A model generated the notes under the pieces. The model worked only from the letters and a program-made list of their open reading frames with translations. It had not been told where the DNA came from and searched no databases. The translations under genes and the position numbers were made by a program. From the NCBI RefSeq assembly GCF_965641715.1, contig NZ_OZ282453.1: DNA of 64,000 bases; one strand, 5' to 3'. Source of the stretch: Escherichia coli (GTDB lineage Bacteria > Pseudomonadota > Gammaproteobacteria > Enterobacterales > Enterobacteriaceae). Of this stretch, positions 11,086 through 21,539 are shown piece after piece (within the stretch, counting starts at the first letter, position 1; every line of letters starts with the position of its first letter).

Positions 11086-13752
11086 ATGGAACCTTTTAAA
11101 TATATATGCCATTACTGGGGAAAATCCTCAAAAAGCCTGACGAAAGGAAATGATATTCATCTGTTAATTTATCATTGCCTTGATGTTGCTGCTGTTGCAG
11201 ATTGCTGGTGGGATCAATCAGTCGTACTGCAAAATACTTTTTGCCGAAATGAAATGCTATCAAAACAGAGGGTGAAGGCCTGGCTGTTATTTTTCATTGC
11301 TCTTCATGATATTGGAAAGTTTGATATACGATTCCAATATAAATCAGCAGAAAGTTGGCTGAAATTAAATCCTGCAACGCCATCACTTAATGGTCCATCA
11401 ACACAAATGTGCCGTAAATTTAATCATGGTGCAGCCGGTCTGTATTGGTTTAACCAGGATTCACTTTCAGAGCAATCTCCCGGGGATTTTTTCAGTTTTT
11501 TTGATGCCGCTCCTCATCCTTATGAGTCCTGGTTTCCATGGGTAGAGGCCGTTACAGGACATCATGGTTTTATATTACATTCCCAGGATCAAGATAAGTC
11601 GCGTTGGGAAATGCCAGCTTCTCTGGCATCTTATGCTGCGCAAGATAAACAGGCTCGTGAGGAGTGGATATCTGTACTCGAAGCATTATTTTTAACGCCA
11701 GCCGGGTTATCTATAAACGATATACCACCTGATTGTTCATCACTGTTAGCAGGTTTTTGCTCGCTTGCTGACTGGTTAGGTTCCTGGACCACAACGGATA
11801 CCTTTCTTTTCAAAGAAGATGCACCTTCAGGAATACAAGCGCTAAGAACATATTTTCAGGATAGACAGCAGGATGCGTGTCGGGTACTGGCGCTGAGTGG
11901 CCTTGTATCAAATAAGCGTCGTTATGACGGTGTACATGCCTTACTGGACAATGGCTATCAACCAAGACAATTACAGGTGTTGGTCGATGCTCTTCCTACA
12001 GCTCCCGGGCTGACGGTGATTGAGGCACCTACGGGATCAGGTAAAACCGAAACAGCGCTGGCCTATGCCTGGAAACTTATTGACCAACAACTTGCGGAGA
12101 GTGTTATTTTTGCCCTCCCTACACAAGCTACTGCAAATGCAATGCTCAGCAGAATGGAAGCGAACGCGAGCCGTTTATTTACCTCCCCAAATCTTATTCT
12201 TGCTCATGGTAATTCACGTTTTAACCACCTTTTTCAATCAATAAAATCACGCGCATTTACTGAGCAGGGGCAAGAAGAAGCGTGGGTTCAGTGTTGTCAG
12301 TGGTTGTCACAAAGCAATAAGAAAGTGTTTCTTGGGCAAATCGGCGTTTGCACTATTGATCAGGTGTTGATATCGGTATTGCCAGTTAAACACCGCTTTA
12401 TCCGTGGTTTGGGAATTGGTCGAAGTGTTTTAATTGTTGATGAAGTTCATGCTTACGACACCTATATGAACGGCTTGCTGGAGGCAGTGCTCAAGGCTCA
12501 GGCTGATGTGGGAGGGAGTGTTATTCTTCTTTCCGCAACCCTACCAATGAAACAAAAACAGAAACTTCTGGATACTTATGGTCTGCATACAGATCCAGTG
12601 GAAAATAACTCCGCATATCCACTTATTAACTGGCGAGGTGTGAATGGTGCGCAACGTTTTGATCTGCCAGCTCATCCAGAACAACTCCCGCCCCGCTTTT
12701 CGATTCAGCCAGAACCTATTTATTTAGCTGACATGTTACCTGACCTTACGATGTTAGAGCGAATGATCGCAGCGGCAAACGCGGGTGCACAAGTCTGCCT
12801 CATTTGCAATTTGGTTGACGTTGCACAACTATGCTTCCAACGGCTAAAGGAACTAAATGACACGCAAGTAGATATAGATTTGTTTCATGCGCGCTTTACG
12901 CTGAACGATCGTCGTGAAAAAGAGAATCGTGTCATTAGCAATTTCGGAAAAAATGGGGAGCGAAATGTTGGACGAATACTTGTCGCCACCCAGGTCGTGG
13001 AACAATCACTCGATGTAGATTTTGATTGGTTAATTACCCAGCATTGTCCCGCTGATTTGCTTTTCCAACGATTAGGCCGTTTACATCGCCATCATCGTAA
13101 ATATCGTCCCGCCGGTTTTGAGATTCCTCTGGCAACCGTTTTGCTGCCTGATGGCGAAGGTTACGGACGACATGAGCATATTTATAGCAACGTTAGAGTC
13201 ATGTGGCGGACGCAGCAACATATTGAGGAACTTAATGGAGCATCCTTATTTTTCCCTGATGCCTACCGGCAATGGCTGGATAGCATTTACGATGATGCTG
13301 AAATGGATGAGCCAGAATGGGTCATCAAAGGCATGGATAAGTTTGAAAGCGCTGAGTGTGAAAAGAGGTTCAAGGCTCGCAAGGTTCTGCAGTGGGCTGA
13401 AGAATATAGTTTGCAGGATAACGATGAAACCATTCTTGCGGTAACGAGGGATGGGGAAATGAGCCTGCCATTATTGCCTTATGTACAAACGTCTTCAGGT
13501 AAACAACTGCTCGATGGCCAGGTCTACGAGGACCTAAGTCATGAACAGCAGTATGAGGCTTTAGCACTTAATCGCGTCAATGTGCCATTTACCTGGAAAC
13601 GTAGTTTTTCTGAAGTAGTCGATGAAGATGGGTTACTTTGGCTGGAAGGAAGGCAGAATCAGGATGGATGGATCTGGCAGGGTAACAGTATTGTTATTAC
13701 CTACACTCGGGATGAAGGGATGACCAGAGTCATCCCTGCAAATCCCAAATAA
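11086..13752 (+). CDS. cas3: Cas3 nuclease/helicase, type I-E (888 aa)
   Basis: 888 aa; N-terminal HD domain (LLIYHCLDVAAV...HDIGKF), helicase Walker A GSGKTE and DEVH box; RBS AGGGAGG before ATG at 11086. Confidence 0.97.
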   Translation: MEPFKYICHYWGKSSKSLTKGNDIHLLIYHCLDVAAVADCWWDQSVVLQNTFCRNEMLSKQRVKAWLLFFIALHDIGKFDIRFQYKSAESWLKLNPATPSLNGPSTQMCRKFNHGAAGLYWFNQDSLSEQSPGDFFSFFDAAPHPYESWFPWVEAVTGHHGFILHSQDQDKSRWEMPASLASYAAQDKQAREEWISVLEALFLTPAGLSINDIPPDCSSLLAGFCSLADWLGSWTTTDTFLFKEDAPSGIQALRTYFQDRQQDACRVLALSGLVSNKRRYDGVHALLDNGYQPRQLQVLVDALPTAPGLTVIEAPTGSGKTETALAYAWKLIDQQLAESVIFALPTQATANAMLSRMEANASRLFTSPNLILAHGNSRFNHLFQSIKSRAFTEQGQEEAWVQCCQWLSQSNKKVFLGQIGVCTIDQVLISVLPVKHRFIRGLGIGRSVLIVDEVHAYDTYMNGLLEAVLKAQADVGGSVILLSATLPMKQKQKLLDTYGLHTDPVENNSAYPLINWRGVNGAQRFDLPAHPEQLPPRFSIQPEPIYLADMLPDLTMLERMIAAANAGAQVCLICNLVDVAQLCFQRLKELNDTQVDIDLFHARFTLNDRREKENRVISNFGKNGERNVGRILVATQVVEQSLDVDFDWLITQHCPADLLFQRLGRLHRHHRKYRPAGFEIPLATVLLPDGEGYGRHEHIYSNVRVMWRTQQHIEELNGASLFFPDAYRQWLDSIYDDAEMDEPEWVIKGMDKFESAECEKRFKARKVLQWAEEYSLQDNDETILAVTRDGEMSLPLLPYVQTSSGKQLLDGQVYEDLSHEQQYEALALNRVNVPFTWKRSFSEVVDEDGLLWLEGRQNQDGWIWQGNSIVITYTRDEGMTRVIPANPK

Positions 13753-14166
13753 CTTCGGGAATGATTGGTATCAATGACGATAACAAGACCAATAACGGTT
13801 TATCCCTACTTAAGTAGGGAAGGTGCACAATGTACATCTTCTTTTAATTTCCCGGTATGAGATTTTATATTCGCAGTATGAATATTTTATGTAATAAAAT
13901 TTATGGTAATTATTATAACTAAAAGTTTCTTTGATAATAAAACGAATAACTTGCAGATTTGAAATGCATGCATTATTGTCTTTAAACAATTCAACACATC
14001 TTAATATATGTATAGGTTAATTGTATTAAACCAATGAATATATTTTTGCAGTGAATGTGATTATTGAATTAATTACGCCGTATTTTTTCTTTGTTTTTAC
14101 CGATAACGGAAGTGTGCCGACGTATAGAAATGCAGGAGAAATGTCGGAGCATATGAAGGAGAACAA
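13753..14166 (+). promoter_or_regulatory. AT-rich cas3-casA intergenic region; expected site of the casA operon promoter
   Basis: 414 bp strongly AT-rich non-coding stretch directly upstream of casA; in K-12 this region holds the H-NS-silenced, LeuO-activated Pcas promoter (established knowledge, exact elements not mapped here). Confidence 0.45.
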
Positions 14167-15675
14167 ATGAATTTGCTTATTGATAACTGGATCCCTGTAC
14201 GCCCGCGAAACGGGGGGAAAGTCCAAATCATAAATCTGCAATCGCTATACTGCAGTAGAGATCAGTGGCGATTAAGTTTGCCCCGTGACGATATGGAACT
14301 GGCCGCTTTAGCACTGCTGGTTTGCATTGGGCAAATTATCGACCCGGCAAAAGATGACGTTGAATTTCGACATCGCATAATGAATCCGTTCACTGAAGAT
14401 GAGTTTCAACAACTCATCGCGCCGTGGATAGATATGTTCTATCTTAATCACGCAGAACATCCCTTTATGCAGACCAAAGGTGTCAAAGCAAATGATGTGA
14501 CTCCAATGGAAAAACTGTTGGCAGGGGTAAGCGGCGCGACGAATTGTGCTTTTGTCAATCAACCGGGTCAGGGTGAAGCATTATGTGGTGGATGCACTGC
14601 GATTGCGTTATTCAACCAGGCGAATCAGGCACCTGGTTTTGGTGGTGGCTTTAAAAGTGGTTTACGTGGAGGAACACCTATAACCACCTTCGTACGTGGG
14701 ATCGATCTTCGCTCGACGGTGTTACTCAATGTCCTCACAATACCTCGTCTTCAAAAACAATTTCCCAATGAATCACATACGGAAAACCAACCTACCTGGG
14801 TTAAGCCTGTCAAACCCAATGAATCTGTGCCAGCTTCGTCAATTGGCTTTGTCCGCGGCTTATTCTGGCAACCAGCGCATATTGAATTATGCGACCCCAT
14901 TGGGATTGGAAAATGTTCTTGCTGTGGGCAGGAAAGCAATTTGCGTTATACCGGTTTTCTTAAGGAAAAATTTACCTTTACAGTTAATGGGCTATGGCCC
15001 CATCCGCATTCCCCTTGTCTGGTAACAGTCAAGAAAGGGGAGGTTGAGGAAAAATTTCTTGCTTTCACCACCTCCGCACCATCATGGACACAAATCAGCC
15101 GAGTTGTGGTAGATAAGATTATTCAAAATGAAAATGGAAATCGCGTGGCGGCGGTTGTGAATCAATTCAGAAATATTGCGCCGCAAAGTCCTCTTGAATT
15201 GATTATGGGGGGATATCGTAATAATCAAGCATCTATTCTTGAACGGCGTCATGATGTGCTGATGTTTAATCAGGGGTGGCAACAATACGGCAATGTGATA
15301 AACGAAATAGTGACTGTTGGTTTGGGATATAAAACAGCCTTACGCAAGGCGTTATATACCTTTGCAGAAGGGTTTAAAAATAAAGACTTCAAAGGGGCCG
15401 GAGTCTCTGTTCATGAGACTGCAGAAAGGCATTTCTATCGACAGAGTGAATTATTAATTCCCGATGTTCTGGCGAATGTTAATTTTTCCCAGGCTGATGA
15501 GGTCATAGCTGATTTACGAGACAAACTTCATCAATTGTGTGAAATGCTATTTAATCAATCTGTAGCTCCCTATGCACATCATCCTAAATTAATAAGCACA
15601 TTAGCGCTTGCCCGCGCCACGCTATACAAACATTTACGGGAGTTAAAACCGCAAGGAGGGCCATCAAATGGCTGA
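14167..15675 (+). CDS. casA: Cascade large subunit Cse1/CasA (502 aa)
   Basis: 502 aa, N-terminus MNLLIDNWIPVRPRNGG; RBS AAGGAG; first gene of Cascade operon. Confidence 0.95.
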   Translation: MNLLIDNWIPVRPRNGGKVQIINLQSLYCSRDQWRLSLPRDDMELAALALLVCIGQIIDPAKDDVEFRHRIMNPFTEDEFQQLIAPWIDMFYLNHAEHPFMQTKGVKANDVTPMEKLLAGVSGATNCAFVNQPGQGEALCGGCTAIALFNQANQAPGFGGGFKSGLRGGTPITTFVRGIDLRSTVLLNVLTIPRLQKQFPNESHTENQPTWVKPVKPNESVPASSIGFVRGLFWQPAHIELCDPIGIGKCSCCGQESNLRYTGFLKEKFTFTVNGLWPHPHSPCLVTVKKGEVEEKFLAFTTSAPSWTQISRVVVDKIIQNENGNRVAAVVNQFRNIAPQSPLELIMGGYRNNQASILERRHDVLMFNQGWQQYGNVINEIVTVGLGYKTALRKALYTFAEGFKNKDFKGAGVSVHETAERHFYRQSELLIPDVLANVNFSQADEVIADLRDKLHQLCEMLFNQSVAPYAHHPKLISTLALARATLYKHLRELKPQGGPSNG

Positions 15676-16150
15676 TGAAATTGATGCAATGGCTTTATAT
15701 CGAGCCTGGCAACAACTGGATAATGGAGCATGTGCGCAAATTAGACGTGTTTCAGAACCTGATGAATTACGCGATATCCCTGCGTTTTATAGGCTGGTGC
15801 AACCTTTTGGTTGGGAGAACCCACGTCACCAGCAGGCTCTTTTGCGCATGGTGTTTTGCCTGAGCGCAGGAAAGAATGTCATCCGACATCAGGACAAAAA
15901 ACCGGAGCAAACAACAGGTATCTCGTTGGGAAGAGCTTTAGCCAATAGTGGAAGAATTAACGAGCGCCGTATCTTTCAATTAATTCGGGCTGACAGAACA
16001 GCCGATATGGTCCAGTTACGTCGATTACTTACTCACGCCGAACCCGTACTTGACTGGCCATTAATGGCCAGGATGTTGACCTGGTGGGGAAAGCGCGAAC
16101 GCCAGCAACTTCTGGAAGATTTTGTATTGACCACAAACAAAAATGCGTAA
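15668..16150 (+). CDS. casB: Cascade small subunit Cse2/CasB (160 aa)
   Basis: 160 aa, N-terminus MADEIDAMALYRAWQQLDNGA; start overlaps casA stop. Confidence 0.95.
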   Translation: MADEIDAMALYRAWQQLDNGACAQIRRVSEPDELRDIPAFYRLVQPFGWENPRHQQALLRMVFCLSAGKNVIRHQDKKPEQTTGISLGRALANSGRINERRIFQLIRADRTADMVQLRRLLTHAEPVLDWPLMARMLTWWGKRERQQLLEDFVLTTNKNA

Positions 16151-16162
16151 GGAAACCTTTCT

Positions 16163-17254
16163 ATGTCTAACTTTATCAATATTCATGTTCTGATCTCTCA
16201 CAGCCCTTCATGTCTGAACCGCGACGATATGAACATGCAGAAAGACGCTATTTTCGGCGGGAAAAGACGAGTAAGAATTTCAAGTCAAAGCCTTAAACGT
16301 GCGATGCGTAAAAGTGATTATTACGCACAAAATATTGGTGAATCCAGTCTCAGAACAATTCATCTTGCACAATTACGTGATGTTCTTCGGCAAAAACTTG
16401 GTGAACGTTTTGACCAAAAAATCATCGATAAGACATTAGCGCTGCTCTCCGGTAAATTAGTTGATGAAGCCGAAAAGATTTCTGCCGATGCGGTTACTCC
16501 CTGGGTTGTGGGAGAAATAGCCTGGTTCTGTGAGCAGGTTGCAAAAGCAGAGGCTGATAATCTGGATGATAAAAAGCTGCTCAAAGTTCTTAAGGAAGAT
16601 ATTGCCGCCATACGTGTGAATTTACAGCAGGGTGTTGATATTGCGCTTAGTGGAAGAATGGCAACCAGCGGCATGATGAGTGAGTTGGGAAAAGTTGATG
16701 GTGCAATGTCCATTGCGCATGCGATCACTACTCATCAGGTTGATTCTGATATTGACTGGTTCACCGCTGTAGATGATTTACAGGAACAAGGTTCTGCACA
16801 TCTGGGAACTCAGGAATTTTCATCGGGTGTTTTTTATCGTTATGCCAACATTAACCTCGCTCAACTTCAGGAAAATTTAGGTGGTGCCTCCAGGGAGCAG
16901 GCTCTGGAAATTGCAACCCATGTTGTTCATATGCTGGCAACAGAGGTCCCTGGAGCAAAACAGCGTACTTATGCCGCTTTTAACCCTGCGGATATGGTAA
17001 TGGTTAATTTCTCCGATATGCCACTTTCTATGGCAAATGCTTTTGAAAAAGCGGTTAAAGCGAAAGATGGCTTTTTGCAACCGTCTATACAGGCGTTTAA
17101 TCAATATTGGGATCGCGTTGCCAATGGATATGGTCTGAACGGAGCTGCTGCGCAATTCAGCTTATCTGATGTAGACCCAATTACTGCTCAAGTTAAACAA
17201 ATGCCTACTTTAGAACAGTTAAAATCCTGGGTTCGTAATAATGGCGAGGCGTGA
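16163..17254 (+). CDS. casC: Cascade backbone subunit Cas7e/CasC (363 aa)
   Basis: 363 aa, N-terminus [22 protein letters not shown]. Confidence 0.95.
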
Positions 17255-17256
17255 AC

Positions 17257-17931
17257 ATGAGATCTTATTTGATCTTGCGGCTTGCTGGGCCAATGCAAGC
17301 CTGGGGGCAGCCGACCTTTGAAGGAACGCGACCTACCGGAAGATTTCCGACCCGAAGCGGGTTATTAGGGCTACTCGGGGCTTGTCTTGGGATCCAACGT
17401 GATGATACTTCTTCATTACAGGCGTTATCAGAGAGTGTGCAATTTGCAGTGCGCTGCGATGAACTCATTCTTGACGATCGTCGTGTGTCTGTAACGGGGT
17501 TGCGTGATTACCATACAGTCCTTGGAGCGCGAGAAGATTACCGTGGTTTGAAAAGTCATGAAACGATTCAAACATGGCGCGAATATTTATGTGATGCCTC
17601 CTTTACCGTCGCTCTCTGGTTAACACCCCATGCAACGATGGTTATCTCAGAACTTGAAAAAGCAGTATTAAAGCCTCGGTATACACCCTACCTGGGGCGG
17701 AGAAGTTGCCCACTAACACACCCGCTTTTTTTGGGGACATGTCAGGCATCGGATCCTCAGAAGGCGCTATTAAATTATGAGCCCGTTGGCGGCGATATAT
17801 ATAGTGAGGAATCAGTTACAGGGCATCATTTAAAATTTACGGCGCGCGACGAACCGATGATCACCTTACCTCGACAATTTGCTTCCCGAGAATGGTATGT
17901 GATTAAAGGAGGTATGGATGTATCTCAGTAA
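17257..17931 (+). CDS. casD: Cascade subunit Cas5e/CasD (224 aa)
   Basis: ATG at 17257 just after casC stop; N-terminus MRSYLILRLAGPMQAWGQ. Confidence 0.93.
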   Translation: MRSYLILRLAGPMQAWGQPTFEGTRPTGRFPTRSGLLGLLGACLGIQRDDTSSLQALSESVQFAVRCDELILDDRRVSVTGLRDYHTVLGAREDYRGLKSHETIQTWREYLCDASFTVALWLTPHATMVISELEKAVLKPRYTPYLGRRSCPLTHPLFLGTCQASDPQKALLNYEPVGGDIYSEESVTGHHLKFTARDEPMITLPRQFASREWYVIKGGMDVSQ

Positions 17932-18517
17932 AGTCATCATTGCCAGGGCCTGGAGCAGGGATCTTTACCAACTTCACCAGGGATTATGGCATTTATTTCC
18001 AAACAGACCGGATGCTGCTCGTGATTTTCTTTTTCATGTTGAGAAGCGAAACACACCAGAAGGCTGTCATGTTTTATTGCAGTCAGCGCAAATGCCTGTT
18101 TCAACTGCCGTTGCGACAGTCATTAAAACTAAACAGGTTGAATTTCAACTTCAGGTTGGTGTTCCACTCTATTTTCGGCTTCGGGCAAATCCGATCAAAA
18201 CTATTCTCGACAATCAAAAGCGCCTGGACAGTAAAGGGAATATTAAACGCTGTCGGGTTCCGTTAATAAAAGAAGCAGAACAAATCGCGTGGTTGCAACG
18301 TAAATTGGGCAATGCGGCGCGCGTTGAAGATGTGCATCCCATATCGGAACGGCCACAGTATTTTTCTGGGGAAGGTAAAAATGGAAAAATCCAAACGGTT
18401 TGCTTTGAAGGTGTGCTCACCATTAACGATGCGCCAGCGTTAATAGATCTTTTACAGCAAGGTATTGGGCCAGCCAAATCGATGGGATGTGGTTTGCTAT
18501 CTTTGGCTCCACTATGA
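17918..18517 (+). CDS. casE: CRISPR RNA endoribonuclease Cas6e/CasE (199 aa)
   Basis: 199 aa, N-terminus MYLSKVIIARAWSRDLYQLHQGLWHLFPNRPDAARDFLFHVE; overlaps casD end. Confidence 0.95.
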   Translation: MYLSKVIIARAWSRDLYQLHQGLWHLFPNRPDAARDFLFHVEKRNTPEGCHVLLQSAQMPVSTAVATVIKTKQVEFQLQVGVPLYFRLRANPIKTILDNQKRLDSKGNIKRCRVPLIKEAEQIAWLQRKLGNAARVEDVHPISERPQYFSGEGKNGKIQTVCFEGVLTINDAPALIDLLQQGIGPAKSMGCGLLSLAPL

Positions 18518-18532
18518 TTGAGGTGTAATAAA

Positions 18533-19736
<1,204 letters not shown>

Positions 19737-19841
19737 AAACAAGGAATTAGCTGATCTTTAATAATAAGGAAATGTTACATCAAGGTTGGTGGGTTGTTTT
19801 TATGGGAAAAAATGCTTTAAGAACAAATGTATACTTTTAGA
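19737..19841 (+). promoter_or_regulatory. CRISPR leader (AT-rich; array promoter and integration signals expected)
   Basis: 105 bp AT-rich non-coding stretch between cas2 stop and first repeat; repeat strand orientation matches crRNA sense on + strand. Confidence 0.7.
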
Positions 19842-20481
19842 GAGTTCCCCGCGCCAGCGGGGATAAACCGTGTCCGAATTACTACACCGCCGAACAAAAC
19901 GCGAGTTCCCCGCGCCAGCGGGGATAAACCATGATCGCCGCCATGATTACTTGCCTTTTTTGTGAGTTCCCCGCGCCAGCGGGGATAAACCGGTCAGCAC
20001 CGCGTGCTCTGCCTGCAGGCTGTCGAGTTCCCCGCGCCAGCGGGGATAAACCGTCTATATCGGTGCATATATCCCCGACGAAAAAGAGTTCCCCGCGCCA
20101 GCGGGGATAAACCGTATTCATATAAATCCTTATTTTAGATACAGCGGAGTTCCCCGCGCCAGCGGGGATAAACCGCCAGCTTCATAGATCTGGCTCACGT
20201 AGAGCGCGAGTTCCCCGCGCCAGCGGGGATAAACCAGCGGCGCATAACTGATAAACAATAAATGCCGCGAGTTCCCCGCGCCAGCGGGGATAAACCGGGC
20301 CATCACGGTTTTATTCAGGTTACTGCAGACGAGTTCCCCGCGCCAGCGGGGATAAACCGCTGCGCGATCCAGCGCTCGACTTTGATCGTGAGAGTTCCCC
20401 GCGCCAGCGGGGATAAACCGGGCGCACTGGATGCGATGATGGATATCACTTAGAATTCCCCGCCCCTGCGGTAGAACACCC
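19842..20481 (+). CRISPR. Type I-E CRISPR array: 10 full 29-bp repeats, 10 spacers (nine of 32 bp, one of 33 bp), plus one degenerate terminal repeat
   Basis: Repeat GAGTTCCCCGCGCCAGCGGGGATAAACCG at 19842, 19903, 19964, 20025, 20086, 20147, 20208, 20269, 20331, 20392 (period 61, once 62); repeats 2 and 7 end in A rather than G; degenerate repeat GAATTCCCCGCCCCTGCGGTAGAACACCC at 20453..20481. Confidence 0.97.
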
Positions 20482-20501: not shown

Positions 20502-21539
20502 TCAAGACGCCTTCGCCAACTCCTTCACCAGCGGTAGCATTATCCGCATAACGTCACGGCAGCGACGTTCTATTCTTCCAGGAAGTGCTTTATCAATATG
20601 TTGCTGATTATCCAGTCTTACGTCATGCCAGCTATTTCCCGCAGGGAATGCGGCTGTTTTTGCGCGTTGCTGATAACCATCTTTATTCCCAAGATTCCAG
20701 TTTGTCGCTTCCACCGAAAGTACAGCAATGCCCGCTTTGTCGAATATTTCTGCGTCATTACAACATCCAGTGCCTTTCGGATAATTTTTATTCAAACCCG
20801 GATTGGTCGTTGCGGCAATTCCATGACTACGCGCAATTGCCAGCGCCCTGTCGCGCGTTAATTTCCTTACTGCTTCAGGGGTTTTTACACCGCTGTTGAA
20901 ATACAATTTATCGCCAACAATTAAGTTATCGAGATTAATCACCAGCAGCGTATTTTTCTTTTCGGTGTCACTCATCCGCTTGAGTAAATTCTCAGCGCCT
21001 AATTTCCCTTCCTCTTCTCCACTGGTCGCCACAAATCGAATACCATACTCGGTAGGCGTATTTTTCAGGCGTTCTGCCAGTTCCAGCATGACACCTAAAC
21101 CTGCGGCGTTATCATCCATTCCTTGTAACGTCAGCCCGCCGAGATTGGCATCGGCGTCAGCATCGCTCAGCGGGGCGTAAGTATCCAGATGCGCCATAAT
21201 GATGATCTGCTGCGGCGCTTTGCCTTCATGAGCGGCAATCACCGTACTTCCCGTCACGTTATGCCAGCTCTTACGATTATCGCGGGCGGTATAAATATAC
21301 CGACTATTAAATGTCCGAATATCACTGCGATAACCCATTTGCTGAAACTGTTGGCGAATATAATCGGCAGATAACATTTCTGCAGGAGTTCCGGTCATGC
21401 GTCCCGGAAAGAAAGTAGCAATATGTCGTGCCTGAGTATTAGCAAAATCGCCAGGTTTAGGTGACGAGGCGTGTACGGGGAGAATAAAGCATACGCCGAG
21501 CGCCAGGGCAGCGGTACGGTGGCGCAATGCGGAAAACAT
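20502..21539 (-). CDS. iap: Alkaline phosphatase isozyme conversion aminopeptidase (345 aa)
   Basis: 345 aa with N-terminal signal peptide MFSALRHRTAALALGVCFILPVHA; M28-peptidase-like. Confidence 0.9.
   Translation of the reverse strand: MFSALRHRTAALALGVCFILPVHASSPKPGDFANTQARHIATFFPGRMTGTPAEMLSADYIRQQFQQMGYRSDIRTFNSRYIYTARDNRKSWHNVTGSTVIAAHEGKAPQQIIIMAHLDTYAPLSDADADANLGGLTLQGMDDNAAGLGVMLELAERLKNTPTEYGIRFVATSGEEEGKLGAENLLKRMSDTEKKNTLLVINLDNLIVGDKLYFNSGVKTPEAVRKLTRDRALAIARSHGIAATTNPGLNKNYPKGTGCCNDAEIFDKAGIAVLSVEATNWNLGNKDGYQQRAKTAAFPAGNSWHDVRLDNQQHIDKALPGRIERRCRDVMRIMLPLVKELAKAS

Follow-up and report, generated by a model that had tools for sequence, protein, structure and literature searches.

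The CRISPR1 array of Escherichia coli K-12, also referred to as CRISPR2.1 or CRISPR I, is the closest described relative of the array analysed here. A repeat starting with GAG, in combination with the leader of this locus, defines the variant of K-12, which has been named CRISPR-T or leader-T (Diez-Villasenor et al., 2013; PMC3737337). Arrays of variant-A (O157:H7-type, Cas-EO) are likewise type I-E and share the chromosomal site and the overall architecture, but they differ in a repeat that starts with GTG instead of GAG, in overlapping cas1 and cas2 genes and in a PAM of the form AWG instead of AAG. The PAM that is typical of variant-A systems is ATG (Diez-Villasenor et al., 2013; PMC3737337).

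The way in which new units enter such arrays has been described in several studies. E. coli repeats were shown always to end in the base that occupies the third position of the PAM, with the repeat/PAM pairs CCG/AAG, CCT/AAT, CCA/CGA and CCA/AAA, and a variant last base did not carry over to the repeat formed next (Swarts et al., 2012; PMC3338789). The duplicated unit has been defined as a 28-nt duplicon, which is combined with spacers of 33-34 nt, about 95% of them 33 nt long (Diez-Villasenor et al., 2013; PMC3737337). In agreement with these lengths, 98.6% of the prespacers were found to be 33-bp and 1.1% 34-bp long, and the extra base was most often PAM-distal (Stringer et al., 2020; bioRxiv 10.1101/2020.02.10.942821). 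Most acquisitions from sites other than AAG were +1 or -1 slips in the same study; the -1 slip, which leads to an NAA PAM, was the second commonest non-AAG event, and CAA was listed as a possibly non-functional PAM. According to the published work, slipped prespacers or those with 1 nt more than usual make up a few percent of insertions.

The DNA analysed here is a stretch of 64 kb from E. coli, called the window in the following, which contains a repeat array at 19842-20481. This region is the chromosomal CRISPR1 array of the K-12 type (CRISPR-T, type I-E), and its irregularities are most probably by-products of spacer acquisition. The array shares with K-12 CRISPR1 the 29-nt repeat, the 61-bp period, the leader and the order of the cas genes as well as the position between cas2 and iap, the anchor spacer and the decayed terminal repeat (PMC3737337), whereas its spacers S1 to S9 are absent from the arrays of 5426 complete E. 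coli genomes. By its repeat start, its leader and its cas genes, it can be assigned to the K-12 type and not to variant-A. The array is real, it was rightly described in the sequence-only reading from which our analysis started, and it is wholly conventional.

Locus and array anatomy

The array is preceded by an intact type I-E operon (cas3-cse1-cse2-cas7-cas5-cas6e-cas1-cas2, 11086..19736, + strand), and full-length NCBIfam equivalog matches were obtained for 8/8 genes. The coordinates of cas3 (11086-13752), cse1 (14167-15675), cse2 (15668-16150), cas7 (16163-17254) and cas6e (17918-18517) follow the open reading frames, while the starts of cas5 (~17257-17931), cas1 (~18533-19450) and cas2 (19452-19736) were taken over from strain A30 (99.9% identity) as annotated in RefSeq; all of these genes lie on the + strand. 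On the trailer side, the array is flanked by iap, which encodes the alkaline phosphatase isozyme conversion aminopeptidase (20502..21539, - strand; full-length match to NCBIfam NF007568, E = 1.7e-212). According to the ORF list and an NCBIfam search of the window, cysJIH is located upstream of the cas operon and cysDN beyond iap. The order cas2-leader-CRISPR-iap-cysD was identical in 12/12 RefSeq strains compared. The segment from cas6e via cas1 and cas2 to the leader is 99.8-99.9% identical to the strains A30, Combat11I9, L26 and 23CRST011. Of the 5426 complete E. coli genomes, 1222 carry this K-12-type haplotype.

Between the cas2 stop codon and the first repeat lies a leader of 105 bp with an A+T content of 71% (19737..19841, + strand), which is of the K-12 or leader-T type. 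It is identical at 105/105 positions to the leaders of A30 and Combat11I9 and at 102-103/105 positions to those of ten other K-12-type strains, in contrast to merely 72/105 for the variant-A strain 2017-02-2CC. A strict scan for the sigma-70 consensus found no promoter in the leader. The 3' end of cas2 (19709-19739) and the middle of the leader (19782-19812) are connected by a two-copy direct repeat of 31 nt with 71% identity, starting with AAGGTTGGTG, which possibly arose by chance.

Two further observations concern the surroundings of the cas genes. The gap between cysH and cas3 contains a full-length match to the sok antitoxin RNA (Rfam RF01794; 10850-11006, + strand; 102.6 bits, E = 3.9e-22). 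Among the short ORFs in its vicinity, none was obviously an intact Hok-like one, and the segment resembles the remnant of a hok/sok locus immediately 5' of cas3. In three of the ten strains of the first search (L013, L015 and L016), an IS1 element adjoins a truncated or missing cas5/cas6e; in L017, cas5 is annotated as truncated and no IS1 was present in the stretch fetched. All four strains have retained an intact cas1-cas2 pair and array despite the damage to cas5/cas6e, whereas the operon in the window is complete.

The array itself (19842..20481, + strand) consists of ten functional repeats, ten spacers and one decayed terminal repeat, as determined by a repeat search and a direct count. 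Eleven in-register repeats of 29 nt start at 19842, 19903, 19964, 20025, 20086, 20147, 20208, 20269, 20331, 20392 and 20453; the spacing from start to start is seven times 61 bp, followed by 62, 61 and 61 bp. Eight of the ten functional repeats (R1, R3-R6 and R8-R10) read exactly GAGTTCCCCGCGCCAGCGGGGATAAACCG. The remaining two, R2 (19903..19931, + strand) and R7 (20208..20236, + strand), which precede S2 and S7, deviate by a G to A change at position 29 and by nothing else. S8 (20298..20330, + strand) is the single spacer of 33 bp and contains a TTTT run, the nine others being 32 bp long. S8 has 34 nt when position 29 is assigned to the spacer, and under the 28-nt duplicon convention nine spacers have 33 nt and one has 34 nt.

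These features had been pointed out in the sequence-only reading, and our counts bear them out: the two A-ending repeats and the single 33-bp spacer were seen as described, all ten spacer strings that it had listed match the window exactly, and the terminal repeat, for which about 19 of 29 matching positions had been given, has 20/29. The same reading had named uniform spacer lengths under other repeat boundaries as the outcome that would speak against it. Such shifted boundaries are ruled out as a source of uniform spacing, since the period from R8 to R9 is 62 bp wherever the boundaries are drawn.

With ten repeat copies showing 0-1 mismatch, a period of 61/62 bp and spacers that are all different, the array has the properties of a type I-E CRISPR. 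Neither strand of the 64-kb window contains another copy of the repeat with up to 8 mismatches, and a chance pattern can be discounted. For the repeat, the hairpin expected for Cas6e, with a 7-bp stem and a tetraloop, is predicted (-15.1 kcal/mol, z = -3.6). Since position 29 is not part of this stem, the predicted fold is the same with G29A. A gathering-threshold Rfam scan of the window and an E-value scan of the array returned no CRISPR repeat family but only matches at chance level, a silence that says nothing against the existence of the array. Tandem Repeats Finder reported only 2.6 copies in the array because the spacers are unrelated to each other.

Repeat position 29 and spacer length

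Scars of adaptation are most likely the best explanation for both the A-ending repeats and the 33-bp spacer, and the evidence for them is supportive, not decisive. According to the proposed scheme, the array is predicted to be transcribed on the + strand from the leader on the cas2 side, and Cas6e would cut the transcript after the repeat hairpin, releasing crRNAs with the 8-nt 5' handle AUAAACCG. New spacers would enter at the leader, where Cas1-Cas2 would duplicate repeat positions 1-28 only and insert a 33-nt prespacer. This prespacer would begin with the final PAM base, in the normal case the G of AAG, which would make position 29 of the repeat in reality a spacer-derived position. The ends of R2 and R7 would then reflect the capture of S2 and S7 from prespacers starting with A. 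For S7, the most likely event would be a -1 slip at an AAG PAM, with CAA as effective PAM and a donor of the form CAA|GCGGCGCATAAC..., whereas the frame of S2 would lie 2 nt upstream of an ATG-flanked site, with a donor of the form NNA|TGATCGCC.... S8 would go back to a 34-nt prespacer, which is 1 nt longer than usual, with the additional base at either end. We infer the donor origin of both A residues, the slip assignments and the extra base of S8 from the published mechanism together with imperfect homologues of the spacers. The crRNAs of S2 and S7 would accordingly be expected to carry the handle AUAAACCA. The derivation of the last repeat nucleotide from the PAM is reportedly also credited to Goren et al. 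and to Datsenko et al., both in 2012, and slipped or off-length prespacers in type I-E adaptation are said to have been described in 2014 by Shmakov et al., as cited by Stringer et al.

A comparison with these published cases shows how far the parallels extend. Variation at the last repeat base, its non-propagation and CCA ends are all common to the window and the case described by Swarts et al. (2012); the differences are that the array in the window is a natural one and that its match between repeat and PAM would have to be deduced from homologues with 29-30/32 identity. In terms of the slips described by Stringer et al. and Shmakov et al., the S7 flank CAA|G would correspond to a -1 slip at AAG and the length of S8 to the class of 34-bp prespacers, while the frame of S2 differs in lying 2 nt upstream of ATG and not beside AAG.

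To place the two A residues in a wider context, we carried out a census of 124 unique repeat-spacer units from 14 arrays, in which each repeat was compared with the modal repeat of its own array. Position 29 accounted for 6/28 substitutions (binomial P = 3e-4). These six changes are without exception internal singletons (ranks 2, 4, 4, 5, 7 and 7) and turn the base to A or C, whereas substitutions at the other repeat positions cluster in the last three repeats of the 14 arrays. Position 29 thus behaves unlike the other positions of the repeat. Within the window, R1 and R6, the copies generated from R2 and R7, have G as their last base; the A was not copied into the newer repeats and is for this reason not part of the copied unit.

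The rates can be compared as well. In 13 other arrays, a base other than G precedes 4/109 unique spacers and a length of 33 bp occurs in 2/109, compared to 2/10 (Fisher P = 0.08) and 1/10 (P = 0.23) in the window. The share of irregular units is higher in the window, but not significantly, and the rates are ordinary.

Mutation after acquisition would offer another route to the same units. It would require two independent G-to-A changes at the ends of R2 and R7 and, in addition, a 1-bp insertion in S8, for example in its run of four T residues, the presence of which counts in favour of this possibility. Against it stand above all the two changes at the same one of 29 positions in otherwise perfect repeats and the census, in which position 29 was also changed in four other strains, to A as well as to C, with all 6/28 changes internal (P = 3e-4). 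Moreover, published experiments derive the last repeat base from the PAM (PMC3338789). We regard mutation after acquisition as improbable, but it is the strongest of the competing explanations and gains some ground from the spacer homologues described below.

An error of sequencing or assembly is hardly credible. Repetitive arrays are prone to mis-assembly, but no flaw is seen in the period or in any other repeat, variants of the same kinds occur at similar rates in independent complete genomes, and errors would not concentrate on position 29.

If position 29 is donor-derived, the 29th base of the repeat in arrays of the E. coli type I-E is best assigned to the spacer. Apparent repeat SNPs at this position would record the PAM that was used, and would thus not serve as markers of polarity or age. 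The account of micro-heterogeneity given in the sequence-only reading should be replaced by the known mechanism of PAM-derived nucleotide, slipping and off-length prespacer. Beyond correct annotation, the significance of these irregularities is small.

Spacer targets and flanking bases

A donor with an exact match is available for S4 (20054..20085, + strand). The spacer matches 32/32 positions, preceded by AAG, in IMGVR_UViG_2713896897_000016 and 31/32 positions, likewise with AAG, in a prophage adjoining ttcA of strain STEC384. Both matches (IMG/VR contig L021 and STEC384) lie at the start of a gene for a RecE-like exonuclease, supported by a PHROG exonuclease match, of a lambdoid or Rac-like prophage. 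R4 ends in G, and the base 5' of the protospacer in the exact donor is therefore the same as the end of the repeat. S4 should mediate interference if the operon is expressed.

The picture is different for S1 (19871..19902, + strand), the newest spacer, which matches a phage DNA methyltransferase gene with 31/32 positions in IMGVR_UViG_2529293142_000021. In this match (L022, 3687-3730) and in five distant homologues, the spacer is preceded by AAA, a Lys codon, while R1 ends in G. A wobble between AAG and AAA had been expected, but AAA was invariant in 6/6 homologues. S1 would fit the model of PAM donation only if its true donor carried a synonymous AAG, which is plausible because acquisition strongly favours AAG. 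Taken by itself, the flank of S1 appears neutral to slightly adverse for the explanation by adaptation scars. It also shows that flank and repeat do not always agree in the available data, which counts on the side of mutation after acquisition.

Homologues of S7 were found in the tail-sheath gene of P2-like prophages. In 4/5 homologues sequenced (L008, L019, L020 and equivalents), the flank reads CAA|GCGGCG, so that an AAG occupies -2 to +1. L008 and two contigs of IMG/VR, each with 29/32 positions in common with S7, read ...TTTTCAA|GCGGCG and have an A at -1 as in R7. The closest homologue (L005, 30/32) has CTG upstream and hence G at -1, which again is in line with a later mutation of R7. 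The true donor of S7 is a third, unsampled variant. At best, S7 would be expected to prime, given the possibly non-functional CAA and 2-3 mismatches to the known phages.

For S2, for which no protospacer was found, evidence comes from the array of another strain. S2 (19932-19963 in the window) overlaps spacer 10 of the variant-A strain 2017-02-2CC (L006, 2502-2533), which is offset 2 nt downstream, stands behind a G between variant-A (GTG) repeats and differs by one base in the region shared with S2. Read together, the two spacers would reconstruct a donor A-T-G-ATCGCC.... If the A of the window is taken as donor-derived, the spacer of 2017-02-2CC receives the PAM ATG, which is typical of variant-A (PMC3737337). 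At this site, ATG occupies positions -1 to +2 relative to S2; ATG is not an acquisition motif of the K-12 type, and the frame of S2 (NNA) is non-canonical. The overlap indicates that the window and 2017-02-2CC captured the same target site independently, with different variants of the type I-E system.

Other searches for spacer sources were negative. The searches returned no exact donor of S2, S7 or S8, a result which leaves room for mutation after acquisition. S2 and S8 had no match in IMG/VR, metagenome contigs and GTDB genomes in exact or wobble-tolerant scans, and for S8 no protospacer was found in any collection searched. The collections of E. coli genomes, phages, plasmids and IMG/VR contained no source of S3, S6, S8 and S9, and those of E. 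coli genomes, phages and plasmids none of S5. A search of the ten spacers against the phage collection (E <= 1) gave no match. Against plasmids, S10 was the only spacer to match, in records resembling chromosomes and in a single IncHI2 plasmid. The best spacer match inside the window, 21/32, is at chance level and gives no indication of self-targeting.

In total, an exact donor was found for S4 and phage-gene homologues with 29-31/32 identity for S1 and S7, and no source was found for six spacers. On the basis of these matches, S1, S4 and S7 can be assigned to genes of temperate phages, adding three E. coli spacers directed against a DNA methyltransferase, a RecE-like exonuclease and a P2-type tail sheath. 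This is in agreement with the targeting of temperate phages that is generally reported for E. coli spacers (Dion et al., 2024; PMC10910852). S1 to S9 would represent memories specific to the lineage, of which at least three concern temperate phages.

Polarity and the ancestral end of the array

The oldest part of the array is marked by S10 (20421..20452, + strand), a species-wide anchor spacer that is present with at least 99% identity in 3744/5426 complete E. coli genomes. S10 or a variant with 1-2 nt differences is the last spacer in the arrays of 12/13 compared strains, where it is followed by the same decayed repeat. S1 to S9 were found in none of the other arrays among the 5426 complete E. 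coli genomes and can serve as a strain-specific barcode. Even A30, Combat11I9, L26 and 23CRST011, the closest strains with regard to cas1, cas2 and the leader, share only S10 and an identical R11 with the window.

R11 (20453..20481, + strand) has retained 20/29 positions of the repeat and has lost the hairpin, with a predicted fold of -5.3 kcal/mol and a 4-bp stem. It is identical in the four closest strains and differs by 1-2 nt in others. As the last repeat would never be renewed by duplication, it would decay and be inherited vertically together with the anchor spacer S10.

From the leader abutting cas2, the gradient of conservation between S10 and S1-S9, the decayed R11 and the strand of the repeat, which is the known crRNA sense, the polarity of the array can be deduced: R1 is leader-proximal and newest and the iap end ancestral and vertically inherited. 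The sequence-only reading had arrived at the same orientation by taking all irregularities together. Its conclusion stands, and so does its use of the degenerate terminal repeat, but the A-ending repeats and the 33-bp spacer, with the internal ranks 2, 7 and 8 of 10, carry no information on polarity.

The repeat preceding the anchor spacer, R10 (20392-20420), is a perfect consensus copy in the window as well as in A30 and CFSAN061771. In most other strains, this place is taken by old variants (GTG..., ...GCATCAG..., ...GCGTCAGCGAGG...), together with older shared spacers. The perfect R10 suggests a past recombination or deletion between repeats, and it may be that a repeat-repeat deletion wiped out the older part of the array before S9 to S1 were added.

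R10 is also the observation that speaks for an import of the variant repeat-spacer units in finished form, through recombination with another array or with the CRISPR of another strain, given the variant repeat at this place in most strains. Recombination has been documented as a route of array evolution. Yet S1 to S9 occur in no other array that could have served as a source among the complete genomes, and the S2-like spacer of 2017-02-2CC, with its offset of 2 nt and its variant-A repeats, argues for independent capture and not for transfer. An import would also leave the irregularity of the units unexplained. We therefore judge it to be very unlikely.

Beyond the origin of the single scars in adaptation, the array as a whole could be a natural memory that was rebuilt recently: all spacers but the anchor would have been lost, and nine unique spacers would have been added in the wild by a usually silent system through naive, Cascade-independent adaptation. 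The loss is suggested by the perfect consensus repeat before S10, and the naive mode by a raised share of non-canonical units, 3/10 as compared to ~5% in other arrays. We put this forward as a speculative reading that is probably not correct. Still less likely is a consequence of the S1 flank: if the donor of S1 truly carried AAA, the last G of a newly made repeat would not in every case come from the donor.

A last observation concerns the IncHI2 plasmid that matched S10. pIOMTU792 (NZ_LC542972.1), a conjugative IncHI2A plasmid of 293 kb, carries at 242939-250967 variant-A cas7-cas5-cas6e-cas1-cas2 genes of the chromosomal type, along with iap and a CRISPR1 array whose anchor spacer resembles S10; blaCTX-M-15 is located about 2 kb from this segment.
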